Below, one piece after another: positions 6,089 through 21,846 of a DNA stretch of 22,200 nucleotides (position 1 is its first letter; every line of letters begins with the position of its first letter). Source of the stretch: Candidatus Hodarchaeota archaeon (GTDB lineage Archaea; Asgardarchaeota; Heimdallarchaeia; Hodarchaeales; Hodarchaeaceae). A program made the position numbers and the translations under genes. The notes below the pieces were generated by a model. It saw only the letters and a list, made by a program, of their open reading frames with translations. It searched no databases and was not told where the DNA came from. Location: positions 1-22,200 of the forward strand of contig JAHQWW010000061.1 of the NCBI GenBank assembly GCA_029856365.1. The letters run 5' to 3'.

Positions 6089-6126
6089 TGTAGATCACTC
6101 AATATTTAAAGCTTATATTTTAATAA

Positions 6127-6921
6127 TTATAGATTAAAAAACTCATCTAATTTTTTTGATTGCGAGATAGATGATGGCCGTGAAATCGTAGGGAATACAT
6201 CCTGCCATGGGACTAAACATGACTCTAGATTGAAATTCTTTAAATAAGTTTTGACCTTTTTTGGTAAACTTGTAGCTATTAAGATCCCTCTTACTTTTTG
6301 ACCTTTTTTCTGGAAGAAATCAACATATCTTCGAAGTTGATGAGCGTCTGCTGGAGTTGCCGATGATTTTTTTACTTCAATGACTACAAAGGTACCTGAT
6401 GCATCCAGTGCCCAAATATCGATGAATCCAAAGTCTATTTCTTTTTCTGATTCAATAATTTGCAAATCTTGTTCTATAATATCTGGGTTATTCACAAGAT
6501 ATTCAACGAAATCCTTTTCATGACCAATTATTGAGGCAGTTTCGTCAGACTGACCTTCATATGAAAGTGCCAGATAAACTTCCGAGAAAGTAATAAAGAA
6601 GCTTTCATCAGTCTTAGGACGATAGGTCTCCATTTGAAAACATTCATCAACAATTCTGAATGAAACCTTCCCTGCTCCTGCTAATTGCCATTGAACTGGT
6701 TTAACACCAGAAGAACCATGTAATAAGATAGATAAATCTTTTTTGATTATGAGAACCCTATCGCCATCAGGGAATCGTGATTTAATCCTTCCATCGAAGA
6801 ATGCTGAACAATTCCCAAGGAGAAGAATCATATTTTTTTCAAGGTGATCATTTAACTGGTCTTGGAGAATAGGGAGATTAGGAGAAAGTTGGGTTATATT
6901 GTCGTTCAATATTATTCCCAA
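6127..6921 (-). CDS. nucS: Mismatch-specific endonuclease NucS/EndoMS
   Basis: N-terminal FDGRIKS..DGDRVLIIKKD.S.LLH....KPVQWQ, PD-(D/E)XK core EKE....FIDIWALD..G..VVIEVK...QLRRYV, and C-terminal PIP-like QSKKLDEFF. Confidence 0.93.
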   Translation of the reverse strand: MGIILNDNITQLSPNLPILQDQLNDHLEKNMILLLGNCSAFFDGRIKSRFPDGDRVLIIKKDLSILLHGSSGVKPVQWQLAGAGKVSFRIVDECFQMETYRPKTDESFFITFSEVYLALSYEGQSDETASIIGHEKDFVEYLVNNPDIIEQDLQIIESEKEIDFGFIDIWALDASGTFVVIEVKKSSATPADAHQLRRYVDFFQKKGQKVRGILIATSLPKKVKTYLKNFNLESCLVPWQDVFPTISRPSSISQSKKLDEFFNL

Positions 6922-7240
6922 TCACGATATGTTTGGATATTCTATTACTTTAAGAGTCTTATTAGAGAAATAAAGATGGTTGAATAAAAACTCAATACAC
7001 CTATTATATTAATGAGTCTTATTTAATTTATGGAAAATTATTGCAAATGTATTTTACAAGTAGTAAGATTACCAAATCATTTTAATAATGAAAGATTTTC
7101 TCTGGTGAAATTTAAGTAATACATTGTACACAAAGATAAATCAAGTGTGAAGACAAACATTTGATACGGATAAGAGTAGAATTTAATATTGGCTAGTTCA
7201 AACGAGGAGGAGCAGTGAACACTGTTGAAAAGACTACTTG

Positions 7241-7284
7241 AAATAAAAAGGAACATCCAAAAGACATCGGTATTCTTGGATGTT
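7241..7284 (-). terminator. Putative terminator of the large surface-protein operon
   Basis: Perfect 9-bp inverted repeat AACATCCAA (7252-7260) / TTGGATGTT (7276-7284), 20 nt after the 7305 stop. On the minus strand it is followed by CCTTTTTATTT. Confidence 0.5.
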
Positions 7285-7304
7285 TATCAGAAACTTTTCA
7301 GTGA

Positions 7305-10300
7305 TTATTTCCGCCTTTGCTTATTCTTCTTTCTTCTTATCTTCCTAAGATTAACAATAGCAATAACAGCTAATCCAACAAGGATCAAATTGAAACCAGG
7401 TGTTCGAAGAGGGGCTTGAGACTCTATTCCTTCTTCTAAGACTAAATTAATGGCAACTTCATCAGTTACAATGTTACCAGAGGTGTCTTTGACTTCTAAG
7501 TAGAGCGTATGGTTTCCAGCAACCCAACCAACAAGTTGTAATACAATATCTGATCCATCCCAATCAAATTTTCCTAGTGGTTCATTATTTCGCTTGAATT
7601 CATAGGAAGCTGGGTGCAAATCATAAGCTGACCAAGTTACTTTAGCATGTAGATCTCCAACTACAAATCTACAATCCGAAATGTGTGTTAATGTCGGTGC
7701 TGTGATATCAACTATTGATACCTGCGAAGTACAGGTGTGAGATAACTCGAATTGATCATAGACTATTAAGACAAAGGTATGAACACCTAATGTTAGACTG
7801 TCTAAAGAAACAGAGAGATTAGTGGCAGTTAAGGTACCTGAAGAATGAATTGAACCATCCATATAAATTGAGTAATTATTTGGGTTGGCTTCAAGTATAA
7901 ACCACCTCAAGAAATGACCTGTAGTCCCCTCTGAAATGACTAGATCATCTGGCTGAATAATGAGAGGTGGAGTAAAATCGGTGACTTTAACGATGACTGA
8001 TAGTTCACCGACATTTCCAGATTCGTCTTCAACGACCAAATTGTACTCGTAAACACCTGTTGATAATCCAAGTAAGCTGACGAATACATATGGATTTCCT
8101 GAAAGTAATGGCACATTCTCGATAAGTGTTCCATTACTATATAATTGGTATTGAGAGGGATGAAGCTCGCTTACATAGAATTCGAACCAGTTTGGAGAAT
8201 AAAGTGGTTCGTATTGAGTTCTACCGACAGACATTATCAGTGGTTTAATTATATCTAACATCGTAACTTCAATAGAGGAATACAGTGTGTTTCCTGTAGC
8301 GTCACGGAAGTATGCGTCATAAGTATAAACACCAGGAGTAAGACCTGCAAATGAAAGACTAAACGTTGCATTACCTTTAACCCAAGTTCCAGTGGCATTT
8401 GATATTCCATTTATTAAGATTTCATATGTTCCCGGTCGTGAATCGAGATCCATTATTGACCAGTATGGTAACTCTAATTTAGTGTAGTTGTGTTCAAAAA
8501 TAGTGATCTGTGTTTCTGGTGCTACTAAAAGGACGGGACTATCTAGATCCACAAGAACAAAAGTCCAATGATGACTAAAAAGGTTTCCTGCAAGATCGTA
8601 AAAGTTGAAATAAAGCTCATTAGAACCAACAGAAATTGTGTGTGTCAGTGTGTCAATATCAATAAATACAGGATCATTACTTTGCCACTCACCGGTAGAG
8701 AGAAGAGTGGTGTTATCGAGTTTCAATTCAAAATAAGCAGGATTTGTATCATTAACTGTTGCTGAAAATGTGTTACCGTAACCTAATAATAAGGATGAAC
8801 TTGGAAAGACTTGCATATTGGGATCGGAATTATCAGTGGGAGTTATGGTGATGATAACAGTGCTGGTAGCAGTATTATTGCTCATATCTTGAAGAACCAT
8901 GGTAAAAATCCATGTTCCCTCGGATAACGTACCAGGAGCAATGATATGTTTCATAGTCCAATTACGTGGATCGTCTAAACTATATTTGAAACAAAAATTA
9001 TCCAAATAGGTCAGAGTCAAAGGTATCCCATTGCGATAAAGGGTCATTGTATATAAATAGTCTTCAAAGCATTCCCAATATATTTCAATATTATTCTGGT
9101 AATTTAAGGGAAAAACTTCTTTTCCTGGTAGATAAGTAATAATGGGATTAGCTGTATCTTGGGGTACAATCTCAAGCAAAATTTGATCTTCTGCAACATT
9201 ATTACTAAGGTCAGTGAAATCTATCGTTATATTATGCACACCAACTTCTAAGGGATTCGTTCCAGTAACCGGAACATTAACCACTGTTTCGGTTGTCCAA
9301 GATCCAGTATCAAATTCTATACCATTAATGTAAACAGTATAACTATTTGGATATTCATCTACAGCTCGCCAAGTGAAATTATGTGTTATTGGTGACTCTG
9401 GATAAATATATCGGTCTAGAAGATATTTGGGTTCATGGAAATAAATACCTGGGGCAACCCTATCAGGCTCGAGAATAGCAATACTAACCTCACAGGCAGA
9501 GAATACTAAATTAGCACCACTTTTTACCGAAGTTACAATGATTCCAAAATTATAAGTATCTGGGGTAATGATATCAGGATCAGAGATTCTAAGTGTAATA
9601 ATGACATCCTGCGGTTCCATTGGACTGACATTTTCAATGATTGATGGATATGTTAGATAATCATCCCATCCTACAGTATCAATGATAAAACTATCATTCA
9701 CATTTCCTGTGTTGTTGAAGCTGAAAGTGAAATTAGTCTCCCAATTAGCGAAAACTGTGGTAGTTTCGGGAGTTATGGATGCCTCAACACCGTAAGCTTC
9801 TGAAAAATTAAGAATTAGAGTTTTTTGTTTATCAAAATAGGGTGTACGTGAACTATTGGCTGATAATTCAAATTCATACAATCCTGGATCAGGGAAAATA
9901 TCAGAGCGATCAAAAACAAAAGAAAATGCACCGAAGAAGTGGTCATCAGGTTCTGAACCATAAGGATTTACAATAAACTCTTCTGACCACGTATAGTTGG
10001 CTATTCCTGTGTTTAATCGTGCAGTAACATTAATAATGTCATTAACATTTCCTAAATTCTGACCTGAAAACCCAATGGCTACATGGTCACCCTGATTAAC
10101 CATCATTCCATCATAAAGTTGTGGAGCAAACTCAAGATCAACGTCATATGTTTCTGGAACGGTTAATACTGCTGTTTGAGTAATGGAGGGGTCAGGTAGT
10201 TCATAGTGAACACTCTGCAGAGATGTAGCATTTATAGTAAACGACCAGTCCCCTGGAGGTGCATCAGTTAATTCAGGTCCATAGATGATTAATGTTGCTT

Positions 10301-12050
10301 TAGTTTGACCGGCAACTCCAAATGGATTAGGATTAGGAGCAAAAAGTGATGAAATACCTCCCGGTTCACCACCATATTCAACAGTGAACTCACCGGGGTC
10401 AACTTGAGTTGATCCTGAAAGTTTATAAAGTGCAGGATCCAAATCAAATTCATAACGGAACCCCCCTGGTAATCCCAAGACCTCTAGTTCTATAGTATCA
10501 GACTGATCAGGTTTTAAATTGGAATTGGTAAGATCAATCTCGAATTTTTGGTATGGACCAAAAGGTGAAGGGGTAAGGTCTTGAACTTTTGTAATTGACA
10601 TGTCGAAGTCATATATGGCTGAATAATCTTCTGTGACACTGATACTACTACTATACCATTTCATTGTAACGATCGGGAATGGGCACTCAATGGGAATTTC
10701 AGGTAGATCCCATTTTTTAGTTCCTAGGAAGAAAAGAAGCCCACCAAACTTGAGTTCTAAATATGGATAAAAAGTTATTTTACTCAACCAGTAAGTAAGT
10801 CCAGTTATTGCAAAATCGATACTTGGTGTTATTAAATGACTCAAAATCGTAAAAGAGGTTGATTTAGTCTGCCCTGCTGCATTCCAACTAATTAAACGAG
10901 ATTTCCAGAGATCAGGTGATATTATCATCAATCCTGATACGGATTCACCTGTTAGTACAGTTTCTCCGAGGCTTACAGAAAATGTGATAAGGTCTCCGAA
11001 AAGGCCGCCTAGCTTAGCAAGTGTCACTTTTGGTGTATCAAAAGATATCTTGTCGCCTCCAAGAGGAGTTGTAAATGATTTTGTCTTTGAAAAACCTGGA
11101 GTCCTGCGATAATTATCTGTACAATCCCAATACCAGCCCTTACGTTCACAACAATAGCTTATCCCAAACAAACCAAAACAACGTTTAGTGCATCTACTGG
11201 AATATCTCCAACGATGTCTTTTATACCCATAATCTGCTTGACAAGTTAATTCATACTCATTAAAATCTTCTATATTTACCGGATTTACTTTACACGAAAA
11301 TTCATATTCATGTCCTTCGAAAATCCTCTTAGGATGTTTAATTACCAAGTCTACAGGAAATTTAAGCGTAACTTTGAAATTAAATTTAAACCAAGCCTCA
11401 ACTTTCCATACTTTTACACCAAAAATCTTTTGCGTATGCTTAATACTTTTGTCAATATTGACACCAGGAAGATCAATTCCAAAATTAACTCTGTATGTAG
11501 TTGTTGTGTATTCAGGGACAAAATCTTCTGGCATTTCAGTCTTGGGTAACACTGGAACAGAAATATTTTCGAATAACGAATCATTAAAGCCTAAAACTGT
11601 CATAACAGGTCGTTGAGAAAAAACAGTTTTTTCTATATAATCGCCATTATGGTAATTTGTTTTTAGTACTAATTTAGCTTTATCAGGAGTTTGTTCCTTT
11701 GTTACTTCCCAGCCTTCAATTATTTCTTGAGAGAATGATGAATACTCTGGTGAAGCTATCCAGCTTTCATAGAGATTTTTTTCTAGTGTCCTTGCTATAC
11801 CAGAAAATTCTTCGGGTGATAGTGGCATTGACACTTCTGACGGAAGAATCTGTTGGTTTAGATCATTTTTGATACTTTCTTGCATATGATGCATCATTTC
11901 TTCTGATTCTTTAGTGAATTCTTGATTACGGGTTTGGAGTAATCGTGATTGGGAATCAGCATTTATTATGGTAACACTAGAATAGCCAATAAGTAAGATC
12001 AAAATTATTGAAATTATTTTGATTCTATATTCTTTTAGTGTAATACTCAT
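7305..12050 (-). CDS. Giant secreted surface protein (1581 aa): unknown head, 3 COG1470/CARDB-like Ig domains, 7 Ig-like stalk repeats, PGF-CTERM-type sorting signal
   Basis: Signal peptide (IISIILILLIGYSSVTIINA), N.GNVND-type domains, and seven D..xP...W...D..P..Y...G.....D..GN repeats. The C-terminus is TPGF-NLILVGLAVIAIVNL-RKIRRKKNKQRRK. The start overlaps the upstream stop (ATGA 12050-12047) with GGAGG upstream. Confidence 0.88.
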   Translation of the reverse strand: MSITLKEYRIKIISIILILLIGYSSVTIINADSQSRLLQTRNQEFTKESEEMMHHMQESIKNDLNQQILPSEVSMPLSPEEFSGIARTLEKNLYESWIASPEYSSFSQEIIEGWEVTKEQTPDKAKLVLKTNYHNGDYIEKTVFSQRPVMTVLGFNDSLFENISVPVLPKTEMPEDFVPEYTTTTYRVNFGIDLPGVNIDKSIKHTQKIFGVKVWKVEAWFKFNFKVTLKFPVDLVIKHPKRIFEGHEYEFSCKVNPVNIEDFNEYELTCQADYGYKRHRWRYSSRCTKRCFGLFGISYCCERKGWYWDCTDNYRRTPGFSKTKSFTTPLGGDKISFDTPKVTLAKLGGLFGDLITFSVSLGETVLTGESVSGLMIISPDLWKSRLISWNAAGQTKSTSFTILSHLITPSIDFAITGLTYWLSKITFYPYLELKFGGLLFFLGTKKWDLPEIPIECPFPIVTMKWYSSSISVTEDYSAIYDFDMSITKVQDLTPSPFGPYQKFEIDLTNSNLKPDQSDTIELEVLGLPGGFRYEFDLDPALYKLSGSTQVDPGEFTVEYGGEPGGISSLFAPNPNPFGVAGQTKATLIIYGPELTDAPPGDWSFTINATSLQSVHYELPDPSITQTAVLTVPETYDVDLEFAPQLYDGMMVNQGDHVAIGFSGQNLGNVNDIINVTARLNTGIANYTWSEEFIVNPYGSEPDDHFFGAFSFVFDRSDIFPDPGLYEFELSANSSRTPYFDKQKTLILNFSEAYGVEASITPETTTVFANWETNFTFSFNNTGNVNDSFIIDTVGWDDYLTYPSIIENVSPMEPQDVIITLRISDPDIITPDTYNFGIIVTSVKSGANLVFSACEVSIAILEPDRVAPGIYFHEPKYLLDRYIYPESPITHNFTWRAVDEYPNSYTVYINGIEFDTGSWTTETVVNVPVTGTNPLEVGVHNITIDFTDLSNNVAEDQILLEIVPQDTANPIITYLPGKEVFPLNYQNNIEIYWECFEDYLYTMTLYRNGIPLTLTYLDNFCFKYSLDDPRNWTMKHIIAPGTLSEGTWIFTMVLQDMSNNTATSTVIITITPTDNSDPNMQVFPSSSLLLGYGNTFSATVNDTNPAYFELKLDNTTLLSTGEWQSNDPVFIDIDTLTHTISVGSNELYFNFYDLAGNLFSHHWTFVLVDLDSPVLLVAPETQITIFEHNYTKLELPYWSIMDLDSRPGTYEILINGISNATGTWVKGNATFSLSFAGLTPGVYTYDAYFRDATGNTLYSSIEVTMLDIIKPLIMSVGRTQYEPLYSPNWFEFYVSELHPSQYQLYSNGTLIENVPLLSGNPYVFVSLLGLSTGVYEYNLVVEDESGNVGELSVIVKVTDFTPPLIIQPDDLVISEGTTGHFLRWFILEANPNNYSIYMDGSIHSSGTLTATNLSVSLDSLTLGVHTFVLIVYDQFELSHTCTSQVSIVDITAPTLTHISDCRFVVGDLHAKVTWSAYDLHPASYEFKRNNEPLGKFDWDGSDIVLQLVGWVAGNHTLYLEVKDTSGNIVTDEVAINLVLEEGIESQAPLRTPGFNLILVGLAVIAIVNLRKIRRKKNKQRRK

Positions 12051-15000
12051 CTCTTAAACCTCCTTTTAAATGCAAAAAATGCTCTAAACACAATTAGCAC
12101 AAGTGCGGTCATTCCTAGTGTTATATAATCAAATCCAGGTGCACTTTCAGCTTTTACCACGGTGATTTTGACATCATCCATTGCAAAATTCCCAGAAACA
12201 TCATAGACTATACAGCGAAGGTAGTATTCACCTACTTCTAATGAATCCCATTCGTAGACGATATCATCACCATCCCAAGATCCAGCGTCAAGGATGCTAC
12301 CATCCATAAGGTTAACTATCTGATAGCTAGCTGGTGCAGCGTCTGACGCAACCCATGTCACTTCAACAGCCCCTTCTTGTACATTAAGATCTGCTAAAGG
12401 AGTTATTTCTGGAGGAGTAAGGTCTCCACTAACTGTTACACCGACTAGCATAGTTGCATTGTTATCATAGATGTCCCAAGCAAAAAATTTGATTGTATAT
12501 GAGCCAATTGCTAATCCATCAACTGAAACATTGACACCAATATTGGGGGTAGACCAAAGATGTTCAGAGAGAAGTACAGGCCCAATAAATATTTGATAAC
12601 CTTCGGGATGCTTATCAAATAAATAGAAAACAAGAGTGTTTCCCGTACTACCATAAACAATATCAAGATCATCATGATGCGAGATTTCAGGTGGTGTGAG
12701 GTCATAAATACTTCCAGGTAGGATTTTAACAATAGCATTACTTGAAACACTGTTACCTGCTTCATCCCAAACTATAAGTGTGAATTCCCAAGTACCGAGA
12801 GGGAGAGAGGCGAAGGAATACTGAATTAGACCAGATGACCAATAACCTTGTGAATAGACAACTGTACCATTTCTATAAATAACACACACAGTAGGATGTT
12901 CATCAAAAACTTCCCATGTGATTGTACCACGCATATTTTCAGTAAAAACTAGATCTGCGGGATGATTGATCGTTGGGGGAGTTGTATCGGGCACTGGTGG
13001 TATGACAATAACTAGGACGGTATCAAAAACGAAAGTACCCGAGAGATCCCATAGAGTTAGATTATATAGATATGTACCAATTGGTAATCCATCGACGTTA
13101 AAGGATATGTTTTCTCCATGCCAAGGAGCATACTTTTGGATATCGCCATCCTTCGAGATTTGATAAGCATAGGGATGGGCATCAGAACAAGACCAATTCA
13201 ATGCATTACCTTCTGATCCAACTTCATAGATAAGTGATCCAGGAGAAATGACATTTGGAGCATCGATATCAGGAACAAAAGGTAAAACAGTTACAAAGAC
13301 AATATCAAATGCTTTATTACCCGCTTCATCTTCAAGTGTGCAGTTAAATAGGTATGTTCCCTCAGAAAGTCCGCCTAAAGATATTTGGATATCATTTCCT
13401 ATCCACATTTGACTATAAATCAATGTACCATCTCGGGTAACAGTCGCCCACCAGGGGGCTCGATCATCAGATGCTTCCCATGTGATCGAATAACCGATTC
13501 TCCCTTCTTCAAATGTTTTATTTTCAGGAGAGGAAATAATCGGAGGCGTAATGTCAGGAGCACCTGGTAGAACAGTAACCCATACTTCATCAGAAGCAGT
13601 TGCACCCCCTACATTACTACAAACCAAAGTAAAATTATAAATACCCTCTTCAAGTCCATCGAGTGGGAGGATAACAGAATCTGTCCAATTACCAGTTTTA
13701 AAAACAGTATTATTCCGATAAACAGTGTAATTGGCTGGATTGGGGTCTGAAACGGACCACAAGATAGAATATCCAGGTTCACCAAAGTTAATAGCAAAAT
13801 CACCAGGACCAGTTATGGTTGGAACTGATATAACAGATTGGAACGGAACAATACTAGAGGAATACCAAATACCTTTGATGTCAGCACAGAAAACTTGGAT
13901 ATCATGAATACCATTGTCAGTCATAGGAATAACAGTATTTCCAGGAGCTGTAATAATAGGACCATTATTAACGGAATATCCTTCCCAGCTGACTGGAGTG
14001 GGGAAAGAATAATTAAGCAGTAAACCTTCATTAAGATTTTCTCCTACCTCATATCCAGACTCAAAGGAGAAACCAAATGCATCAAACCAGGTCCCATAAT
14101 TGGGATGACAACCTGACCAATGGGTTCCTGTTGAGAAAAAGTAGAAATGCGTGGGGGTGTTCTGGAATGTATAGGCGTAACCACTACCGTAAAGGACACC
14201 ATCAAACACAATTTGATAACCTCCTTGGTAAATGTCAAAATCAATTTGCACATGGTGCCAGGTGTTTGTTGTAACAACGTTATCACCTACAATGACTCTA
14301 TCAACCCATCGGTTGGCATAAAGATCCATATTCTCAACACCAAATTCAATAAAACCACCTTCACCTGTTATGGCAAATTTTGTAGCATCTAAAGCGGCAG
14401 CAGTGTCTTTATAGAACCAGAATTCAACTATCCCTGCTGTGACATTGGAAGTGAAATACTTATGAAGAGCTGCTCGTGTACCACCACCAGCTTTTCGCAT
14501 CTGAGCAACATTTTTATGACCATCAAGTTCTGCTTCTACTCTAATAAACCCACTACCATCAGGATAAGTGTATGCCCAACCTGTTGGTATTTCACCTAAT
14601 TTAGTATCTTCAAAACCATAAGGACCCGCATAATAGCCGTCCATGGGCGCAAAATATGTAATACTTTCAGGAGACAATATTGTGGGGATGGGATCAATGA
14701 ATGCTTTTGGCTCCGTGGTATTGCATTTACGGACAAAAACCCAATCAACTTCAATAGAAGTTTTATCTGTACCATCATATTGATAATCATGATAAGATCG
14801 GGAGTGTAATGCTCTTCCTATCTGTCCAAATGTTCCAATTGACCGCATTTCTGCTCCCCAGCCTGAACCAGGACCAGAGTAACCTGCGTGTGTCAAAATT
14901 CTCACTTCATATGACCCATCTGGTATTGCTGTACTATTAGTATGTGTAAGAATCGCGGATTCATTGTCATATTGAACTAGCGAATCAGAGAGCCAACGAA

Positions 15001-16684
15001 TCTCACCATTAAACCACGTTCGTTGAGGGACGACTAAGTCCTCTAGAATACCAAGTGATGAACTTTTGGTGTAAACTTTATCACCACGGCTCATTCTCCC
15101 TAATGATAAACCATTCGGTGCACTCTCACCGAAAGCTTGGCGTGGCCAAACAACCTCAAAATCACTGAATCCTAAAGAGGAACCAGCATTGAAAGTATTA
15201 GGAGTATCAGTATACACGGTAACAGTACTACCTGCTACTGTTAATGTACTATACGTATCAGTACGATTCCACCATTTAGTTGCATTAATACTAGTCCCCA
15301 AGAAATCATCAAAAAATTGGAAAGTTGCCTCGCCATTGCTCTCTGAAAGCGCGGTTGAATCACCATAATACATATTGAAGCTGGTTGTTCCAGCAGTTGG
15401 AACCTTTACCCAAATAGTAGAAGTTCCTGTAGAATTCCAAGATTGAATCCAATAGCTCATGGAATTATAATTATCATCAACAAAGCGAATATCACGCCCA
15501 CCTGGATTAGTCTTTGTATAATCAAAGGTGCTAGGATTCAGCTGAACCTTAACTTGGTAATCTACCTCTGGAGTAGCTGGATCTAGGTTTACAATGCTTT
15601 TAAAAATATTATCAACGGTTACAACTGGTTCAAGAGGACTATAAGTACGAACAAGAAGCCAATCACATTGTAATTGATTATAATCATCAGCTGGATAACG
15701 ATTCCAACTGAAAAATCTAAAAGCCCTATCACCTTGTCCCCACGGTATTACTGAAGTAGCCATTGCCCCATAATGATCGCCAGCTGGGTAATCGACCATT
15801 CTAGCTGTTAATTGCACAGTAAGAGGACCGCTGGGTATATTTTGGCTCTTTATCATGGAAGTAGTCCCATTGTGAAATTCAACCAAGTGACTATCAAACC
15901 ACCGGATTTCTCCAAGGAACCAACTTTCATAAGGAACAGCATTAAACGTCCTTGTGTCGTAACCATAAAGCGTACCAATAGTTTGATTGTAGGTACTACA
16001 TTGATCATTATTGAATAAAACTGATTTAGTTGATGTTGTTCCGTAACCCACACCATGATTAATGACGATGTCAGAAAAGCCAATAGAAACACCATGACTG
16101 TGATATTGGGTGGCAGAAGTGGATGTTAATGTTACAATACCCCCAGTAACAGATACAGTGGAATATGCATCTCCTTCACTAATCCATTTACTCGTATTGA
16201 TACTATTTCCAGAGAAATCATCAAAGAATAGGAATGTAGTATCTCCATTACTTTCAGAGACAGCTGCAGGATTACCATAGTACAAATGGAGGGTTGATGT
16301 CCCAGCAGCAGGTACTTTTACCCACAGGATTGAATCTCCACCAGTATTCCAGACTTCTACCCAATAACTTAATTTATGATCTAATGAATCATAAAAGCGA
16401 AGATCACTTCCATCAGCATTTGCTTTGGCAAAATTGAAATTATACGGATTGAGGACAACCTTCACTTGATAATCAGCTACTGGAGTAACAGGATTAATAG
16501 TCAAAATACTTTCATAAATCCATCCAACAGGGATGTCTTGAACTCTATAAGTTGGACTGGAAAAATTTTGGATTCCTTTCTCGTTTATGTTGTATCTAAA
16601 ACAATTTGGTAAAAAGAAAACTAATAGAATACCAATAACAAAAAATAGAATTTGAATCTGATTTTTATCGAATTTCACTCTCAT
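12047..16684 (-). CDS. Giant secreted surface protein (1545 aa): two DUF2341-led units, ConA/LamG-like domain inserted in an Ig-like domain, 6 Ig-like stalk repeats, PGF-CTERM-type sorting signal
   Basis: The DUF2341 motif DYQVKV.L....F......G.D.RF.D.....SYW...W.......WVKVP....YYG...A.SESNG..TF.FFDDF occurs twice. GIVEFWFY...WHHVQIDFD is lectin-like. There are six D.TPP.I..P repeats. The C-terminus is APGF-DYITLGMTALVLIVF-RAFFAFKRRFKR. Confidence 0.9.
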   Translation of the reverse strand: MRVKFDKNQIQILFFVIGILLVFFLPNCFRYNINEKGIQNFSSPTYRVQDIPVGWIYESILTINPVTPVADYQVKVVLNPYNFNFAKANADGSDLRFYDSLDHKLSYWVEVWNTGGDSILWVKVPAAGTSTLHLYYGNPAAVSESNGDTTFLFFDDFSGNSINTSKWISEGDAYSTVSVTGGIVTLTSTSATQYHSHGVSIGFSDIVINHGVGYGTTSTKSVLFNNDQCSTYNQTIGTLYGYDTRTFNAVPYESWFLGEIRWFDSHLVEFHNGTTSMIKSQNIPSGPLTVQLTARMVDYPAGDHYGAMATSVIPWGQGDRAFRFFSWNRYPADDYNQLQCDWLLVRTYSPLEPVVTVDNIFKSIVNLDPATPEVDYQVKVQLNPSTFDYTKTNPGGRDIRFVDDNYNSMSYWIQSWNSTGTSTIWVKVPTAGTTSFNMYYGDSTALSESNGEATFQFFDDFLGTSINATKWWNRTDTYSTLTVAGSTVTVYTDTPNTFNAGSSLGFSDFEVVWPRQAFGESAPNGLSLGRMSRGDKVYTKSSSLGILEDLVVPQRTWFNGEIRWLSDSLVQYDNESAILTHTNSTAIPDGSYEVRILTHAGYSGPGSGWGAEMRSIGTFGQIGRALHSRSYHDYQYDGTDKTSIEVDWVFVRKCNTTEPKAFIDPIPTILSPESITYFAPMDGYYAGPYGFEDTKLGEIPTGWAYTYPDGSGFIRVEAELDGHKNVAQMRKAGGGTRAALHKYFTSNVTAGIVEFWFYKDTAAALDATKFAITGEGGFIEFGVENMDLYANRWVDRVIVGDNVVTTNTWHHVQIDFDIYQGGYQIVFDGVLYGSGYAYTFQNTPTHFYFFSTGTHWSGCHPNYGTWFDAFGFSFESGYEVGENLNEGLLLNYSFPTPVSWEGYSVNNGPIITAPGNTVIPMTDNGIHDIQVFCADIKGIWYSSSIVPFQSVISVPTITGPGDFAINFGEPGYSILWSVSDPNPANYTVYRNNTVFKTGNWTDSVILPLDGLEEGIYNFTLVCSNVGGATASDEVWVTVLPGAPDITPPIISSPENKTFEEGRIGYSITWEASDDRAPWWATVTRDGTLIYSQMWIGNDIQISLGGLSEGTYLFNCTLEDEAGNKAFDIVFVTVLPFVPDIDAPNVISPGSLIYEVGSEGNALNWSCSDAHPYAYQISKDGDIQKYAPWHGENISFNVDGLPIGTYLYNLTLWDLSGTFVFDTVLVIVIPPVPDTTPPTINHPADLVFTENMRGTITWEVFDEHPTVCVIYRNGTVVYSQGYWSSGLIQYSFASLPLGTWEFTLIVWDEAGNSVSSNAIVKILPGSIYDLTPPEISHHDDLDIVYGSTGNTLVFYLFDKHPEGYQIFIGPVLLSEHLWSTPNIGVNVSVDGLAIGSYTIKFFAWDIYDNNATMLVGVTVSGDLTPPEITPLADLNVQEGAVEVTWVASDAAPASYQIVNLMDGSILDAGSWDGDDIVYEWDSLEVGEYYLRCIVYDVSGNFAMDDVKITVVKAESAPGFDYITLGMTALVLIVFRAFFAFKRRFKR
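14695..16516 (-). repeat. Intragenic tandem duplication: two ~304-codon DUF2341-led units (~15605-16516 and ~14695-15604)
   Basis: Colinear protein similarity: YESILTINPVTPVADYQVKV / FKSIVNLDPATPEVDYQVKV; FFDDFSGNSINTSKW / FFDDFLGTSINATKW; WFLGEIRWFDS / WFNGEIRWLSD; DWLLVRTYSPLEP / DWVFVRKCNTTEP. Confidence 0.88.
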
Positions 16685-17011
16685 TTTTCATTCAATCCTT
16701 AAAAACAATCTTCAAATTTTCTCCTCTACCACGAATAAACGCCAATTAATTGTTGATTAACAGCGCTAGGGAAATTTAAACCTTCATTCGGATGATATTT
16801 CCGATTAAATAAAGAATTTCAAGGAATAATCGAATAACAACGAGAGGGTATTTTCTAATCTTAATCTGGCTTATTATGATTTAAAACTTAATAACATTAT
16901 CATAGAGAATTTAGGCCAAAAATATAGTGGGAGATGAAAAGGTAGTTGGAGCGAGTAGATTCATTTTACTCCCTAAAATCCTGGTTTAATTTAAGACAGA
17001 ATGAATCTCAT

Positions 17012-17086
17012 CTATTTTTTATTATCAAATTTTATCAATTGAAGGATATAATTAAGTGAGAACCTTGTTGGGACGGCTTGTACAGA
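17012..17086 (-). pseudogene. Orphan duplicate of the last 24 codons plus stop of the DUF116 gene (matches 20974-21048)
   Basis: The minus strand reads SVQAVPTRFSLNYILQLIKFDNKK*, versus STQAVPTRFPLNYVLQLLQLDIKK* in the intact gene. By hand count, 58/75 nt and 17/24 aa are identical, ungapped, with the same TAG stop. Confidence 0.92.
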
Positions 17087-17300
17087 CCTTTGAGACAAAT
17101 AGCGTGAGCCTAGACCTCGGGTTTCTTCACATGCTGGAGTTTTCTGGCGAAATGAAGTCTTTAGCAATTCTAATGCAGGACTGTTTCACCAAATAGATCT
17201 CTTCTTTGGAGTAATCCGTGAGTATCATTTCTGGATTCATGATCTGCTGACACAATATTCCGAAAGAAGAAAATTAAGATAATGCTAAAGGTTATATTCT

Positions 17301-17326
17301 AAAAAAAAAGAGGGGGAGGAATCCCT
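17301..17326 (-). terminator. Putative terminator after the 1176-aa gene
   Basis: On the minus strand, AGGG-ATTCCTC-CCCT is followed by C and a T9 run (A9 at 17301-17309) right after the TAG stop. Oligo-T tracts are typical archaeal terminators. Confidence 0.55.
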
Positions 17327-17328
17327 TG

Positions 17329-20300
17329 CTATCTTCTTTTATCTTTTTTACGTTTGATAAGAGCAGCAACCAAGTACATACTAGACAGACTGAAAATAAG
17401 AATTTTAAATTCGAACCCAGGAATGCCACCGATAGCTGGAGCATCACCCGTATCTTCTACATTATCTACTTGCAATGCAATACGGATATACAGATGATTT
17501 GCAACTGTATCATTATCTTGCACATCGATTTCACAGAGATAATAATCATCAGCAGTATCAGTGCTATCCCATGTGTGTTCAAAGATTAGCCACCCTGAAT
17601 CTATTCCGGTATAACCCATTGTCGTATCTTCTATTATACTCCCTAAATCGGGTTCTCCAGTACTTGGATCAAAGTCCTCAATGATATAAACAGTAAAACC
17701 AACTGAAGTTATTTGGAGATCATCTTTAGCTGCGATCTTGAAGTTGATATCGCCTGTAACAGGATCATATTCGTTTAAATTACCTGCATCAACATAATCA
17801 CTGAGGTTCTCTGGGAGATCAGAACGATAGTGGTTCCATTCTGGGGGATTACTTACTGTTGGTCCTTCCTGGCCGCCAACAACGATAAACCCAATCTTTT
17901 CTTGAATAGTGTGTTGATTCTCATCAATGTCAATAACAGTTATGTTGAGAATTCTATACCCATTAACCTCATTTTTTAGATCATGCATTCTCTCGTAATA
18001 ACCATTTTCTGGATTATAGGTCATAAAATACATTGGGCCTTGATCAATCTGCATTTTGACGGATTGAATCCCTAGATCATCATTTACTTGGACTTGGAAT
18101 GTTTGGAAACCTTCTAATGTTTTACCTTCTGTATCTGGGAAAATAATATTTACAGTCGGAGGGTATCCAGGTCTAATGTTATCTACCTGAAGATAGAAAC
18201 CATAAATTACTTTGTGACCATCCATATCCCAAACAGTTATTGTGAAGGGATGAACACTATTCTCAGTTTCACCTAATGTATTCCATTCAAACTCGTAGAT
18301 ATCATCACCATCTGTGTCATTTAATAGAAAAGCTGTGAAATCCCTAGTCAGAACCACTGCAAAGATTCCCACATCATCGGTTACTTTTACCTGAATAGTA
18401 TGGGTTCCATAAACAGATTCATTCTCTGCGCTCAGTAGATCAATGATAGGAGCATCCGTGGCAGCTTCATCATAGTTGTTCACTAGTAAATTATGGATAG
18501 CAAAGTTTACCCAATTACCATCATTATCTTCACTGTATGCTACAAGTGTCCATTCTCCATCTGCGAAACCATCCGTTGTATTCCATGTGATGTTATAGTC
18601 TATAGTTGGGTAATATTCCCAACAGACTGTAACATTGATTTCTCGTTCAAACTGTGCTACTCGAGCTGGTAAGTCAGCAAAATATGCCTTTACTGTTGTT
18701 TCTCCAATTCCTGAGGAGCCAAAACGTTGTTCCCAATGCGTTCCATTCCAATAATAGAATGGCCACCAGAACTTATGGACACCATGTGAATTATCGTCCC
18801 ATATTCTTACATGTAAGTGATTGTCCAGCCCTGTGAAACTGATATCCTGTTCTCGGATATTGTTGTCTCCCCAGTATTCTTCTCCTGAAGTGAAATTCTG
18901 GTAATAAAACTCTCCGCCTGGTGCTTGGGTGTCTAATTCGTTTCCAAGGTATGTATAGTCGAATAATAACCCGAAATCATTAAATACCGATCCATTGGCT
19001 TCTCCATTTTCATTAACGAACTCGAGGGATGCTGCATCAGTGTATATTTCCAAATTGTGATTTATATATCTTATATCCCACCAAGGGTCTTCCCAGGTAT
19101 TGATATGCCAACCCCAGCCATTATTTTCACGAGGATAGATAGTATAGTCATCATAAGGGACAACAATTGGGAACTGAGAAACAGAATAATTACTGCAATA
19201 GGGGAGTGATGACCAACTCCATTCCGTTAGTAAGTTGATATCTTCATTTACATAGGGCCCTGAATAAGTCTTTATTGGGTTAATAACCTCCTCAGCGAGT
19301 GGATTCCACCAAAAGTTTATCTCATCTATCCATTGATCTACTTCAGGATGGAAATAAGAAAATTGTTTATATTCCACTGTTGTCATATCCTGGTTCTCAA
19401 AGACTGGACTACTTGGTATTATATCACTATTGCTTAGAAGGGCCTGACTCATTGTGGAAGTGAAATCATTGCAATGGAACCGATAGGTGTTTCCTTCATA
19501 ATGGAGGCGATTCCAGTCCCAACTATTGTGGTCAGTATGGTTATCTACGAAATCGATACCCAAGAAAATTTCAATATCCGTGGCTAGGTCGTTTGCAGCA
19601 CTGTAATGATCATCGTAATCATTATAAACGATAGCCAGCTCAAAACTGTTCCATAAATCTTCTCTGTTCGGTTGGAATGTCATTTCTACAATTATGATAT
19701 TGGAATCCCAATTGGATGTTACTGTTGGAGACTCAAAGTCAATAATTCTTGAGTAATCTCCTCGTAGATAGATGTCTTTATACAAATAGCCATAGTGATT
19801 GACTACTAGTGATGCTTCCATCCTTGTTTGTAGGTAGTGAGGGATAAAGTCATAGTCAAAGCTAACTGACAAATCGGTATAGATCCCACTAAGAATTTCA
19901 AAATCAACATCCCAATAATGATGGGTAACCCAAGGTTCTGGAGGAGGATGATAGTTATAATAGATATAACAAGCGCTGGTATTAGAAGAAGGGCTAGATG
20001 AGAATGGTGTGACATCAGGAAGAGCAAAATTGATCCATAGACGATCTTGGTAACTGTTTTTCTGGATTTTCTCTGTGTGAATCAATTCATTCATAGTTAG
20101 TGTGTGAGATCCACTGTAACTGCCTGTAATGTCATAAATTTCATAATGAAACTCGAAACCAAAGGCAAATCTAATCTCTGGGTTATCACTACCACCTGAT
20201 GGCCACGCCCAAGCGGTAATATAGCTTGCTTCAGTCACATTAATGGTTTCAGCTAATCCTCCAATATTTCGGGGAATGACTTCATCATTGACATATTCGG

Positions 20301-20859
20301 TAAACCAAGGCCATACAATGTGAGATTGATAACGAACTGCAGTAAGGTCGGTCCACTTATCTCCTCTCCAATCTTCCCATGCCCATGTTCCTTCGTACTC
20401 ATAGCTGATCCTTAAACCTTTACTCATGTATTCAACGATTAAATCAGCGTATTCTCTAGCGAGCTCCGCATTATTGGTTCTAAAGTGGATTTCTATTCCA
20501 GTATTCTGATCTCCTGGATTATCTGTTGGCCAGAACCACCAGTTAGCATGATCAAATATATCATAAACATCTTTATAGCCTGCTATGAAAAGATTCAGGT
20601 TTTGTTCCCCAAATCCTAGATCTTTAGAATGAATCTCTGCTCGGGCGTTCATCCACCCTTCGTGACCAACCCAAACCCAAGCTGATTCATAAATATCAGA
20701 ATATAAGTCAACAGAGAGATTAGGAGTGATGAGTGTTTTTTTAATAGATACTGAAGTAGTACTTTGTGTTATCTGCAGTGTAGTTGATATTAAGAACAAT
20801 GAAAGGAGGAGAAGACAAAGTGCTGAAATTGTTATTTTATTTAGTTTTATTCTATTCAT
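17329..20859 (-). CDS. Large secreted acidic, Trp-rich surface protein (1176 aa): duplicated unknown N-terminal domain, ~4 Ig-like domains, PGF-CTERM-type sorting signal
   Basis: Signal peptide ITISALCLLLLSLFLIST and Ig-like repeats (P.I......G...I.V...DD.GI..V....Y...W.T....N.......D.D). The C-terminus is IPGF-EFKILIFSLSSMYLVAALI-KRKKDKRR. GGAG lies upstream of the ATG. Confidence 0.87.
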   Translation of the reverse strand: MNRIKLNKITISALCLLLLSLFLISTTLQITQSTTSVSIKKTLITPNLSVDLYSDIYESAWVWVGHEGWMNARAEIHSKDLGFGEQNLNLFIAGYKDVYDIFDHANWWFWPTDNPGDQNTGIEIHFRTNNAELAREYADLIVEYMSKGLRISYEYEGTWAWEDWRGDKWTDLTAVRYQSHIVWPWFTEYVNDEVIPRNIGGLAETINVTEASYITAWAWPSGGSDNPEIRFAFGFEFHYEIYDITGSYSGSHTLTMNELIHTEKIQKNSYQDRLWINFALPDVTPFSSSPSSNTSACYIYYNYHPPPEPWVTHHYWDVDFEILSGIYTDLSVSFDYDFIPHYLQTRMEASLVVNHYGYLYKDIYLRGDYSRIIDFESPTVTSNWDSNIIIVEMTFQPNREDLWNSFELAIVYNDYDDHYSAANDLATDIEIFLGIDFVDNHTDHNSWDWNRLHYEGNTYRFHCNDFTSTMSQALLSNSDIIPSSPVFENQDMTTVEYKQFSYFHPEVDQWIDEINFWWNPLAEEVINPIKTYSGPYVNEDINLLTEWSWSSLPYCSNYSVSQFPIVVPYDDYTIYPRENNGWGWHINTWEDPWWDIRYINHNLEIYTDAASLEFVNENGEANGSVFNDFGLLFDYTYLGNELDTQAPGGEFYYQNFTSGEEYWGDNNIREQDISFTGLDNHLHVRIWDDNSHGVHKFWWPFYYWNGTHWEQRFGSSGIGETTVKAYFADLPARVAQFEREINVTVCWEYYPTIDYNITWNTTDGFADGEWTLVAYSEDNDGNWVNFAIHNLLVNNYDEAATDAPIIDLLSAENESVYGTHTIQVKVTDDVGIFAVVLTRDFTAFLLNDTDGDDIYEFEWNTLGETENSVHPFTITVWDMDGHKVIYGFYLQVDNIRPGYPPTVNIIFPDTEGKTLEGFQTFQVQVNDDLGIQSVKMQIDQGPMYFMTYNPENGYYERMHDLKNEVNGYRILNITVIDIDENQHTIQEKIGFIVVGGQEGPTVSNPPEWNHYRSDLPENLSDYVDAGNLNEYDPVTGDINFKIAAKDDLQITSVGFTVYIIEDFDPSTGEPDLGSIIEDTTMGYTGIDSGWLIFEHTWDSTDTADDYYLCEIDVQDNDTVANHLYIRIALQVDNVEDTGDAPAIGGIPGFEFKILIFSLSSMYLVAALIKRKKDKRR

Positions 20860-20973
20860 TTTTGAATTTACTCCAATACTTTATAGTTATTGTCATAGAG
20901 TAGTAGAGCTATGTATATTGATAAAGTAAACCATTTCAAATAAATCATTCCAAGCTTCCAATATGAGTGTATT

Positions 20974-21696
20974 CTATTTTTTAATATCAAGTTGTAATAA
21001 TTGAAGAACATAGTTTAAGGGGAATCTTGTTGGGACTGCTTGGGTAGAACCATGCCATTTAGCGCAGCCAGAAAAGAATAAGGGAACTGCTTGGGTTGGG
21101 ATCCCCATCTCCATGATGTATGTCCGACCCATTGCAAGCTCAGGTAGACATGCTACTGCAATAAGCCCAAAATGACCAAACTTCTTATGTAGGTTTCGAA
21201 AAACTCGTAAAAAATTGGGTTCTTTAAAGCGATTACCCATGGTGATAAAAACCTCAAAATTATATTGTCTTCCTAGTTCAGAAAGTTTCCATCCAGAATT
21301 GTTGGAGGTATTGCATCCGATGATGCGATGCCAACCAATTTTTGTGCGTTTCACTTTAAGTAAGTCAAAATTTGGACCAGTCAAACATCTTGGCAAAACA
21401 ACTACCTTTGTAGAAGTTGCTTCAAATGCTGATTTCATTATCTGGTTAGAATATTCAATGAGAAGCATGTAAAGCGCATACTCATTTTTTTGAGTATGAA
21501 TTATGGGATTAAGATAATTGATATCCAATTGCCGATTTGAAACAGCATTCATATATGATTCAAAACCTTGCAAAAAACCATCTAATAAAGGGACAACTGC
21601 TGAATCAAAAACTTGTTGCGCTTGATGGACTACCGTCAAATATTCTGTTAGGTCATTTGATCCACTTTTTTCACTTATTTTGTAAGGCAAAGGCAT
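20974..21696 (-). CDS. DUF116 domain protein
   Basis: KVVVLPRCL, LSELG..Y.FEVFI..G, GLIAVACLPELAMG and AVPL...GC match the DUF116 Cys pattern. The start is placed at the second ATG (MPLPY, 21696); the track's 21711 start is also possible. Confidence 0.78.
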   Translation of the reverse strand: MPLPYKISEKSGSNDLTEYLTVVHQAQQVFDSAVVPLLDGFLQGFESYMNAVSNRQLDINYLNPIIHTQKNEYALYMLLIEYSNQIMKSAFEATSTKVVVLPRCLTGPNFDLLKVKRTKIGWHRIIGCNTSNNSGWKLSELGRQYNFEVFITMGNRFKEPNFLRVFRNLHKKFGHFGLIAVACLPELAMGRTYIMEMGIPTQAVPLFFSGCAKWHGSTQAVPTRFPLNYVLQLLQLDIKK

Positions 21697-21846
21697 TAAA
21701 TACCAACACATCTCCTAGAAAGACCTGTGAAACTATTCTATCTTCCGCGTATTAAACCTTTTAATAAAGGGGGAAAGAATATAATCCCAAGCAGAGACTA
21801 TTAAAAATCACCTTGATTTTCAAAAGAAATTTGGAGTAAAAGACAT

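Follow-up and report, generated by a model that had tools for sequence, protein, structure and literature searches.

Prophage e14 and phage 21 enter the icd gene of Escherichia coli by integrase-driven site-specific recombination, bringing phage genes with them and leaving a displaced icd 3′ end as a pseudogene. In flexible genomic islands, genes for surface structures lie between conserved flanks, and the additive islands are usually located at tRNA genes and carry integrases. Experiments with engineered plasmids in E. coli showed that linear DNA homologous to its target on one side only is for the most part nibbled and recircularized before a single crossover integrates it, producing anchor duplications of 109–950 bp (Amarir-Bouhram et al., 2011; PMC3240628). 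At Rhs and T6SS effector–immunity loci, C-terminal displacement occurs and orphan arrays are built by succession; homology-facilitated illegitimate recombination (HFIR) has been proposed as the mechanism, with no integrase (Kirchberger et al., 2017; PMC5361080; Jackson et al., 2009, cited therein). Finally, the aloposons of Heimdallarchaeum consist of tandem genes for proteins of 3,000–6,000 aa that integrate at tRNA genes and are accompanied by four upstream genes, including one for a ParA/MinD-like ATPase (Wu et al., 2022; PMC8813620).

The window analysed here (the whole stretch of 22,200 nt, an entire contig, C69) belongs to the MAG of a Heimdall-group Asgard archaeon, hereafter G000 (84% complete, 4.24-Mb assembly). 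In this window a DUF116 gene is followed by an insert and then by a diverged copy of its own 3′ end. The same succession is seen at icd, where the displaced copy associated with e14 differs largely at silent sites; the DUF116 insert, however, has neither an integrase nor element genes. The locus shares with flexible islands its conserved flanks, a content that varies between congeners, surface and defence-like cargo and exchange between species, but unlike the additive islands it lies behind a protein gene and lacks an integrase. As at the Rhs and T6SS loci, a new cassette behind a conserved anchor displaces the old 3′ end and older cargo downstream. There, the displaced ends are variable toxin domains with immunity genes, whereas here the tail is a conserved, housekeeping-type end, the cargo is a separate surface gene and only one tail has been displaced. 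Like the Campbell-type products in E. coli (PMC3240628), the locus shows an insert flanked by a direct duplication of the anchor-gene end, a regenerated anchor, no dedicated recombinase and a duplication whose length would depend on the amount of anchor left in the circle; it differs in that the duplication measures about 90 nt and is ancient (24% divergence), and in that the circle is one we infer. The scar is real but ordinary, and its class has already been described in bacteria.

The sequence-only reading had found no recombinase in the window, and the Pfam search of ten large ORFs, together with inspection of the small ORFs of the first kilobase, likewise revealed no recombinase domain. 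A search for tRNAs, riboswitches and other RNA genes in the window gave no tRNA and no Rfam match. Aloposons recall this region in that tandem, very large genes shift position between related Heimdall-group genomes, but identity with them was rejected: the proteins here have 1,176–1,581 aa, and there is no tRNA in the window and no ParA-like domain. An integron-like cassette array, which would call for an IntI-type integrase with attI and for attC-type imperfect inverted repeats at the cassette ends, was rejected as well, given the lack of an integrase, of an Rfam match and of any recurring repeat besides the tail pair.

The displaced DUF116 tail and its insert

The locus comprises the following features, listed in the direction of the minus strand.

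20974–21711, minus strand: intact DUF116, the anchor gene, 245 aa (Pfam PF01976, E=1.5e-9)
20961–21050, minus strand: active (left) repeat copy, with the last 25 DUF116 codons, the stop and ~12 nt beyond (sequence comparison)
17250–20973, minus strand: S1176 transcription unit (CDS 17329–20859), encoding a 1176-aa surface protein (Pfam and DNA homology)
17077–17246, minus strand: filler, a frameshifted, stop-containing 170-nt fragment of an unrelated 287-aa multicopy family, truncated at both ends
16999–17088, minus strand: displaced (right) repeat copy, an orphan DUF116 tail and pseudogene fragment (coding-like 17015–17088, stop 17012–17014, ~12 nt beyond)
7192–16982, minus strand: S block, the overlapping giant surface-protein genes S1545 (12047–16684) and S1581 (7305–12050) (DNA match to G007)
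6960–7191, no strand: AT-rich spacer of 232 nt (23% GC) between the S block and the nucS upstream region (comparison)
6112–6959, minus strand: nucS block (CDS 6127–6921) with the ancestral upstream spacer (Pfam NucS_N and NucS_C)

The minus-strand order DUF116 > S1176 > tail > S1545 > S1581 > nucS had been read correctly from the sequence, as had the repeat itself: positions 17012–17086 are an ungapped direct copy of 20974–21048 (register offset 3962) with 58 of 75 nt and 17 of 24 aa identical and the same TAG stop, and five codons indeed differ purely synonymously. This pair is the top repeat family of the window (D1, 80 nt at 78% in the repeat search). Similarity starts at about 17088/21050 and extends ~11–12 nt beyond the stop, where 9 of the first 15 bases are identical; the longest exact run between the two tails is 11 nt. 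In a blastn search of the whole 4.24-Mb assembly the tail pair scored E=1.9e-11, the next match having E=0.03, and its Smith–Waterman score of 44 stands far above those of 30 shuffled queries, which averaged 13.3 and peaked at 16. A DUF116 paralogue elsewhere that matches the tail better would have offered another source, as the earlier reading had pointed out. None was found in the 84%-complete MAG by protein search or blastn, the protein search recovering solely the intact DUF116 and the tail fragment, and this source was rejected.

The frame of the displaced tail has no DUF116 similarity upstream of 17088; its stop-to-stop stretch covers only 57 codons and contains no ATG. The segment 16999–17088 is best read as a non-functional leftover of a DUF116 3′ end, without present function. 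A tandem duplication of tail plus surface gene was rejected, S1176 and S1545 not being significantly similar (best BLASTP E=0.18).

The 3.9-kb insert bracketed by these direct, in-frame repeats consists of the S1176 unit and the filler; S1176 is its sole intact gene, and it contains no integrase or mobile-element gene. The S1176 protein has an N-terminal signal-like segment, a Big_7 domain and a PGF-type C-terminal anchor. Its unit includes a conserved upstream motif (20917–20941) and a T9 run (17292–17300), and DNA homology to G009, G017 and G014 spans window positions 20942–17301, with weaker similarity extending towards the DUF116 stop and to ~17250. S1176 is single-copy in G000. Its orthologues in G009, G014 and G017 occupy a different, conserved, non-DUF116 locus, separated from DUF116 by 2.2 Mb in G009, whose genome is closed, and in none of the genomes searched does S1176 adjoin DUF116; a donor with DUF116 next to S1176 is therefore hypothetical. 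The dS of S1176 to G009 is 0.83, compared with 1.2–2.6 in five of six flanking genes (0.58 in a short ZnR gene), a difference that may be an effect of gene class. Of the genes that neighbour this locus, G000 has a 502-aa gene in which contig C112 ends and a 93-aa gene on contig C60 that precedes unrelated housekeeping genes. Attempts to rebuild the empty ancestral S1176 site failed, as C112 ends there and synteny is broken, so that relocation within the genome and import are indistinguishable.

The filler corresponds to residues ~198–254 of the 287-aa family, matches G000 contig C143 (116–274) at the DNA level and hits the G007 family protein (L067:904–1767) in two frames by tblastn (E=5e-8 and 5e-6). 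The family, which has no Pfam or NCBIfam match, is represented, with 1–5 matches each, in 17 of the genus's 21 other genomes. Filler and tail meet at ~17077–17090, where they share no more than 5 nt of microhomology; patchworks of this sort are typical of illegitimate joining. A chimeric assembly is unlikely, since the at most 11 identical bases common to the junctions are too few for a k-mer mis-join. In the metagenome and genome collections searched for nearer relatives or strains, the DUF116 loci recovered were 57–74% identical.

DUF116 has orthologues in 12 congeners (55–83% at the amino acid level) and a dN/dS of 0.13 relative to G007, the closest relative. Four changes are private to the active tail, all at synonymous third positions; 13 are private to the displaced tail (codon positions 7:2:4), and two further sites differ in all three sequences. 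Measured against a majority ancestor, the displaced tail carries six synonymous and nine non-synonymous changes. The changes in this tail do not fit the whole-gene omega of 0.126 (P=0.014), are consistent with neutrality (P=0.11) and agree just marginally with the local omega of 0.23 (P=0.15). The two tails may have diverged as functional orthologues, as had been proposed, but these changes fit relaxed constraint at least equally well. The active DUF116 3′ end is nearest to G007 in every segment, and not nearer to G009 or G012, a placement as would be expected for vertical descent. In an ML tree of the tails, weak because only 75 nt are usable, the active tail and G007 form a group (UFBoot 76), just outside which the displaced tail is placed. 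At codon 20 (AAA) the displaced tail has the state of all outgroups, and with G015, G009 and G012 as roots the informative sites are in conflict. If real, the outside position of the displaced tail would favour a foreign or older origin of one of the tails over a recent copy made within the genome.

The DUF116–nucS–M19 neighbourhood and the S block

The baseline order, DUF116 followed after ~30 nt by nucS and then M19, is found in L059, and DUF116 also adjoins nucS in G019 and in G007, which has neither S1176 nor the tail between them. Other relatives carry a gene for a histidine-kinase-like ATPase (G009), an AAA_15/DUF3696 gene plus partners (G012 and G015), a Roadblock-like gene with two signal-peptide/TM-anchored proteins (G021) or the S block (G007). 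With six different contents and a gene order that is not invariant, the interval is a variable slot, as had been suggested. It is not specific for cell-surface genes, for kinase-like and defence-like genes occur there too. The fuller idea of an accreting, swappable surface-gene slot stands as far as variable content and exchange between species are concerned; a tail copy is present in none of the 12 related loci, so tail-marked accretion is seen here only in G000. The neighbourhood qualifies as a flexible genomic island or insertion hot spot, with conserved flanks, accessory content that differs between congeners and a signal of horizontal exchange.

The S block (9.8 kb, including ~300 nt of upstream sequence) is 90.7% identical in DNA to L025:3706–13535 of G007, where it lies between nucS and M19; it is therefore on opposite sides of nucS in the two genomes. 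A third copy resides in an unrelated context (G003:C67). The S block moves as a unit. For its two genes, comparison of G000 with G007 gives dS values of 0.25 and 0.10 (0.57–0.83 for the flanks), and divergence at four-fold sites is 0.127 against 0.389 (Fisher p=1.3e-35); the block was exchanged between the species recently, far later than their split. The nucS block matches L025:2853–3703 at 85% DNA identity, synonymous divergence also being low in nucS codons 1–200, and its upstream spacer adjoins the DUF116 stop codon in G007, G019 and L059. A circular permutation of nucS plus S block was rejected: the ancestral junctions survive, DUF116–nucS in G007 and nucS–M19 in G000, so two separate insertions of the S block are the simpler account. 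No duplicated nucS ends were detected at the S-block insertion in G007. The 232-nt spacer that precedes nucS contains no third tail of greater age, and nothing homologous to it occurs elsewhere in G000 or in the related loci retrieved. Carriage of S1176 or S1581 by a virus or mobile element was rejected, neither gene having a match in the viral contigs searched.

Orphan gene ends elsewhere in the genome

Across G000, ORF 3′ ends recur as direct non-coding copies 10 times and 5′ ends twice, and none is inverted; frame and stop position are kept in nine of the 10 3′-end copies, the DUF116 tail included. Local repeats in general number 203 direct versus three inverted. Seven further candidate cases were recognized, four of which were compared with relatives. 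The inserts behind corA and OTCase are absent from the matching sites of G007 and G009. No integrase was present in the inserts examined at these other loci, and GC content does not distinguish the inserts. In all five cases that could be polarised, DUF116 again included, the displaced copy is the more diverged one. The radical-SAM gene of the OTCase insert is single-copy in the MAG, and the genes of the corA insert are only ~70% identical to their own second copies in G000.

Origin of the displaced tail

With little more than even confidence, we favour an origin of the orphan tail as a fixed scar of insertion and duplication without an integrase, the tail being the right-hand mark of one event. 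An intact upstream anchor gene, a direct repeat of its 3′ end, relatives free of the insert and a microhomology junction were all found. The event would have taken place in the line leading to G000 once it had separated from G007, when incoming DNA, a complete S1176 unit joined to a 170-nt scrap of the 287-aa family, entered at the very end of DUF116. The outcome would be a whole DUF116, the insert, a repeat of the gene's final 77 nt with a few more bases, and then the older S1545–S1581 block. By the most likely route, fragmented DNA from the same population or a close relative was probably end-joined into a circle that happened to hold a short DUF116 3′-end fragment, and this circle may have entered by a single homologous (Campbell-type) crossover in that fragment, using the host recombination machinery alone and no recombinase. 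The position at the 3′ end would follow because such events survive only where the target gene remains whole. Afterwards the displaced copy would have drifted unconstrained, the active copy changing only synonymously. Against this scenario, neither a circle nor a donor nor a strain with the empty site has been observed, and a single crossover would have had 77–90 nt of homology to use, which is short; the ML tree (UFBoot 76) leaves the displaced copy outside the active tail plus G007, codon 20 (AAA) is common to it and all outgroups, and a template switch during replication gives the same end structure.

Import from a strain or sister species with DUF116 followed by S1176, through DUF116-anchored HFIR or a single crossover, would make the two tails selected orthologues and the locus a stacking slot; we regard it as possible, though somewhat unlikely. 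Such an import would account for the absence of indels and the preserved frame and stop in tails that differ by 24%, for the outside position of the displaced tail in the ML tree (UFBoot 76) and for the outgroup state retained at its codon 20. It would also agree with the inter-species transfer evident at the adjacent S block, with the varying content of the neighbourhood across the genus and with the analogous C-terminal displacement arrays at T6SS and Rhs loci (PMC5361080). However, S1176 is beside DUF116 in no genome searched (2.2 Mb away in G009, in a shared other context in G014 and G017), the active 3′ end has diverged from G007 to the extent usual between species, without being nearer to G009 or G012, and tail copies occur at the locus in 0 of 12 relatives. 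The changes in the displaced tail are moreover mostly non-synonymous (nine of 15), the local omega of 0.23 fits marginally (P=0.15), and the tree of 75 nt is weak. Template switching in situ (MMBIR/FoSTeS-like), in which a fork collapsing near the DUF116 terminator copies S1176, then part of a 287-aa-family gene, and returns ~90 nt upstream, seems improbable to us, even though the insert pieces come from at least two other loci and meet at a microhomology junction, templated insertions are flanked by local duplication and the local repeats of G000 are overwhelmingly direct (203 versus three inverted). Copy-and-paste predicts two copies unless one was lost, but S1176 and the radical-SAM gene of the OTCase case are single-copy, and the ~70% identity of the corA insert genes to their second copies suggests foreign DNA; we know of no documentation of such template switching in archaea.

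Alternatively, another complete DUF116 gene, a paralogue or xenologue, might formerly have stood in front of the S block and been mostly deleted, leaving the tail, the adjacent 287-aa-family gene having suffered the same fate. Two abutting gene fragments do resemble a deletion graveyard, and the congener G018 has two DUF116 genes with ~67% DNA identity, although the second may be contamination. At least three separate deletions would be required, one of them sparing exactly the 3′ end and stop, and the 3′-end-only pattern recurs at several G000 genes, for which a one-step insertion and duplication is simpler; we therefore hold this origin to be very improbable. Scarcely credible is either a decayed site-specific integrative element, with the tails as attL and attR and the integrase lost or acting in trans, or a tail that functions as the S1545 promoter or a small ORF. 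The former would reproduce the layout of e14 or phage 21 in icd, but the insert has no integrase or mobile-element gene, the longest exact core is 11 nt (although decay is possible) and many different target genes show the pattern in G000. For the latter it can be said that the DUF116 end (…GATATTAAAAAATAG) is TATA-like and lies ~30–50 nt upstream of nucS in baseline genomes, so that it could act as a promoter; S1545, however, starts 328 nt downstream and has its own ~300-nt upstream region, common to G007 where the tail is absent, and the tail frame lacks an ATG.

An extension beyond this single insertion and duplication, which we consider clearly doubtful, is that orphan tails are units of a recombinase-free cassette system common in the Hodarchaeales lineage, with gene tails as portable attachment sites. 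If so, a cassette that has picked up a copy of an anchor gene's 3′ end could be looped out as a circle by host homologous recombination between tails and re-insert behind the same gene in a different cell or species. Such a system would cover the many 3′-end tails of G000 (10, against two at 5′ ends and none inverted) with their retention of frame and stop, the stacking of surface genes behind DUF116 and the recent exchange of the 9.8-kb block between species.

Even as a dead remnant, the tail dates and orders events at a site of cell-surface remodelling in an Asgard archaeon: S1176 would have been added in the G000 lineage, and S1545–S1581 passed between species long after these had split. 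The several integrase-free, tail-marked inserts offer testable examples of gene gain in the Heimdall group without recognizable mobile-element machinery, which is of relevance to the closest archaeal relatives of eukaryotes and their large, gene-rich genomes. The duplications at these inserts measure ~60–180 nt in most cases, a length that, speculatively, is on the scale of archaeal Okazaki fragments.

The displaced DUF116 gene end

The window spans contig C69 in full (22.2 kb), and the source MAG (G000) comprises 4.24 Mb and is 84% complete; its genus lies within the Heimdall group, and CP070695.1, 'Candidatus Heimdallarchaeota archaeon bin6', is a congener. On the minus strand the gene order is DUF116 > S1176 > S1545 > S1581 > nucS > M19 dipeptidase, where S1176, S1545 and S1581 are surface-protein genes named by length in amino acids, the latter two being giant genes that form the S block.

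DUF116: 20974-21711, minus strand
S1176: 17329-20859, minus strand
287-aa-family fragment: 17077-17246, minus strand, broken internal piece of one member
S1545: 12047-16684, minus strand
S1581: 7305-12050, minus strand
nucS: 6127-6921, minus strand

The direct repeat claimed in the sequence-only reading is real. In register, 17012-17086 (the displaced tail) and 20974-21048 (the active DUF116 3' end) agree at 58/75 nt and 17/24 residues, with a common TAG and no gaps; five codons differ only synonymously, and no exact run exceeds 11 nt. Similarity starts at ~17088/21050 and ends ~12 nt beyond the stop. The pair is the top-scoring repeat of the window, reaches E=1.9e-11 in blastn over the whole MAG (runner-up E 0.03), and has a Smith-Waterman score of 44 against a maximum of 16 with shuffled queries.

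The displaced tail, whose frame is open for 57 codons with no ATG, is a pseudogene fragment adjoining another pseudogene fragment, and has no evident present function. Its neighbour (17246-17077) separates the tail from the S1176 terminator and is a piece (residues ~198-254), with a frameshift and stops, of a 287-aa protein family. That family is matched elsewhere in G000 (C143:1-389), in the closest relative G007 (L067:904-1767) and across the genus, with one to five matches each in 17 of its 21 other genomes; it has no match in Pfam or NCBIfam. At the junction of the two fragments (~17077-17090) at most 5 nt are in common.

The active gene may itself start at its second Met (codon 6) in G000, where the N-terminus reads MCWYLMPLPY, because several DUF116 5' ends among the G009, G012 and G015 loci (L026, L027, L028) carry in-frame stops a few codons ahead of the conserved LMPFPY.

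The DUF116-nucS interval and its inserts

In G007 (DUF116 83% identical in amino acids) the order is ZnR < DUF116 > nucS > S1545 > S1581 > M19, and DNA alignment with its locus L025 shows both S1176 and the displaced tail to be absent.

Matching segments of the window and the G007 locus (L025), with DNA identity
ZnR to DUF116 stop: window 22199-20974; L025 1641-2854; 83.6%
S block: window 16982-7192; L025 3706-13535; 90.7%
nucS block: window 6959-6112; L025 2853-3703; 85%
M19 onward: window 6105-2614; L025 13596-17047; 79.9%

The nucS upstream spacer directly adjoins the DUF116 stop in G007, G019 and the metagenome contig L059, the last having the plain order DUF116, 30 nt, nucS, M19. In G000 this spacer starts at 6959, and therefore 20973-6960 (14 kb) is all inserted DNA. 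The interval holds a gene for a histidine-kinase-like ATPase in G009, an AAA_15/DUF3696 gene with partners in G012 and G015, and a Roadblock-like gene in G021, where nucS is followed by two signal-peptide/TM-anchored proteins of 824 and 847 aa. None of the 12 related loci has a second DUF116 tail downstream. The proposal of a swappable slot for surface genes thus holds as far as a variable hot spot across species is concerned, but the cargo also includes kinase-like and AAA_15/DUF3696 genes. In G012 (L027:2872-5571) and G015 (L028:2770-4447) the AAA_15/AAA_21/DUF3696 ATPase gene, fragmentary in G015, lies beside the gene of a conserved protein of 338-344 aa that matches nothing in Pfam; the two may form a defence-type pair.

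The insert holds a complete S1176 transcription unit, as judged from DNA homology to G009, G017 and G014 (orthologues 71-77% identical in amino acids) over window 20942-17301. This span opens at a conserved upstream motif, ATTTGAAATGGTTTACTTTATCAAT (20917-20941), and closes at a T9 run immediately past the S1176 stop. Fainter similarity extends almost to the DUF116 stop and to ~17250. Located 58-82 nt ahead of the S1176 start on the minus strand, the 25-nt motif is nearly invariant upstream of the orthologues in four species while the surrounding intergenic DNA has diverged, and probably serves as a promoter or regulator site. S1176 of the closed G009 genome lies 2.2 Mb away from DUF116, in the order 100-aa gene > S1176 > 267-aa gene, the upstream part of this context being common to G014 and the downstream part to G017.

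Exchange of the S block between species

The S block, 9.8 kb of surface genes, has demonstrably been exchanged between species, and recently. This gives solid backing to the earlier suggestion of such exchange, for the S block and not for the tail.

Synonymous divergence (dS) between G000 and G007
Seven flanking genes: 0.57-0.83
nucS: 0.47
S1545: 0.25
S1581: 0.10

Differences at four-fold-degenerate sites number 160/1261 for the S block versus 227/584 for the flanks (Fisher p=1.3e-35), and synonymous divergence is lowered across the entire block. The 298 non-coding nt upstream of S1545 are 78% identical between G000 and G007, in line with the dS of S1545. With dN/dS at 0.27-0.43, dN is not lowered, and the low dS therefore reflects recency rather than codon bias. 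The S block is on one side of nucS in G000 and on the other in G007, and each genome keeps one ancestral junction; the simplest account is therefore two independent insertions, in G000 and G007. G003 (L090, C67:8104-17465) has a third copy, 70-73% identical in amino acids, in an unrelated context.

The block (7192-16982) behaves like a mobile unit without a mobility gene. Between it and the nucS upstream region lies a 232-nt spacer (6960-7191; 23% GC) with no homologue in the G000 genome or the fetched related loci, and the other end of the G007 block carries an unrelated 60-nt filler (L025:13536-13595). The proportion of synonymous codon differences between G000 and G007 is 0.16-0.21 over nucS codons 1-200 and 0.46 over its last 60, and 0.19 over DUF116 codons 1-100 and 0.39-0.47 over the rest, which suggests mosaic recombination tracts.

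Recurring gene ends and a proposed route of insertion

The G000 genome offers evidence for a recurrence of tail-marked, integrase-free insertions. Comparing the MAG with itself (repeats within one contig, 50-400 nt long, ≤97% identity, 0.3-40 kb apart) gave 203 direct versus 3 inverted pairs, while between-contig matches were balanced by orientation (523 versus 566). Ten direct pairs combine a copy that crosses an ORF stop with a copy in non-coding DNA, only two do so for an ORF start, and no inverted pair is of either kind. Including DUF116, frame and stop position are kept in 9/10 3'-end pairs (74-92% identity), and the displaced copy lies downstream of the gene in 8/10. Most displaced copies fall outside any sizeable ORF, and in all five cases polarised by relatives, private changes are more numerous in the displaced copy than in its active counterpart. 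Neither G007 nor G009 has, at the corresponding site, the 8.9-kb block found behind corA or the radical-SAM gene found behind OTCase; the radical-SAM gene lies elsewhere in both, like S1176 in G009. Seven further displaced, in-frame, same-stop 3' ends (corA, OTCase, ICMT-like, flavin-reductase-like and others) bracket 0.8-9-kb stretches; the inserts examined hold ordinary genes, with no integrase found.

Further displaced 3'-end pairs in G000
C122: 7695-7778/16646-16729
C94: 12744-12805/10346-10407
C173: 1853-2000/8015-8164
C186: 590-685/2167-2262
C41: 8776-8952/2050-2227
C23: 425-779/8236-8590
C142: 19273-19426/20258-20411

The locus reads as an intact gene, an insert pieced together from other loci, and a duplicated gene end. 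We favour recombinase-free insertion-duplication, in which a circular molecule with a short anchor piece would enter by a single homologous crossover and leave this layout; we propose that selection explains the 3'-end position, since an insertion would persist only if the gene stayed whole. The earlier idea that the tails diverged as functional orthologues is unproven. Polarised with G007 as third taxon, the active tail has 4 private changes, every one a synonymous third position, while G007 has 7 and the displaced tail 13 (7:2:4 by codon position); at two more sites all three sequences differ. Scoring against the majority ancestor gives the displaced tail 6 synonymous and 9 non-synonymous changes; the whole-gene omega of 0.126 is rejected (P=0.014), and neither neutrality (P=0.11) nor the local omega of ~0.23 between true orthologues (P=0.15) is. 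At such divergence the lack of indels or stops across 75 nt carries no information. A copy that arose within the G000 lineage and has drifted freely since explains the tail at least as well. If that drift was neutral, the tail branch measures about 0.2 substitutions per site, which places it after the G000-G007 split (~0.35 per lineage) and before the S-block exchange.

Import from a sister lineage with a DUF116|S1176 arrangement is a possible but less probable origin. The maximum-likelihood tree places the displaced tail just outside active plus G007, weakly (UFBoot 76, 75 nt only), and outgroup sites for rooting conflict with one another; the active 3' end is nearest to G007 in all gene segments, with no pull towards G009 or G012. 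Template switching during replication appears improbable, and decay of a second DUF116 copy still more so. The 84%-complete MAG yielded no second DUF116 gene, and upstream of 17088 there is no DUF116 similarity. Tandem duplication of tail plus gene is ruled out, S1176 and S1545 having no detectable relation. A site-specific element is unlikely. An assembly artefact is unlikely too, because the junctions have at most 11 identical bases in common.

The locus shows the features that define an insertion-duplication scar lying in a flexible genomic island, and lacks those of integrase-driven elements, integrons and, by the criteria of PMC8813620, aloposons. The demonstrated inter-species exchange of the surface block and the evidence for recurrence of such insertions in this Asgard genome are the most useful by-products. 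When linear DNA has homology on one side only, E. coli mostly nibbles it, recircularises it and integrates it by a single crossover, giving duplications of 109-950 bp; true homology-facilitated illegitimate recombination is the rarer route (PMC3240628). The same logic has been proposed for T6SS and Rhs displacement arrays (PMC5361080).
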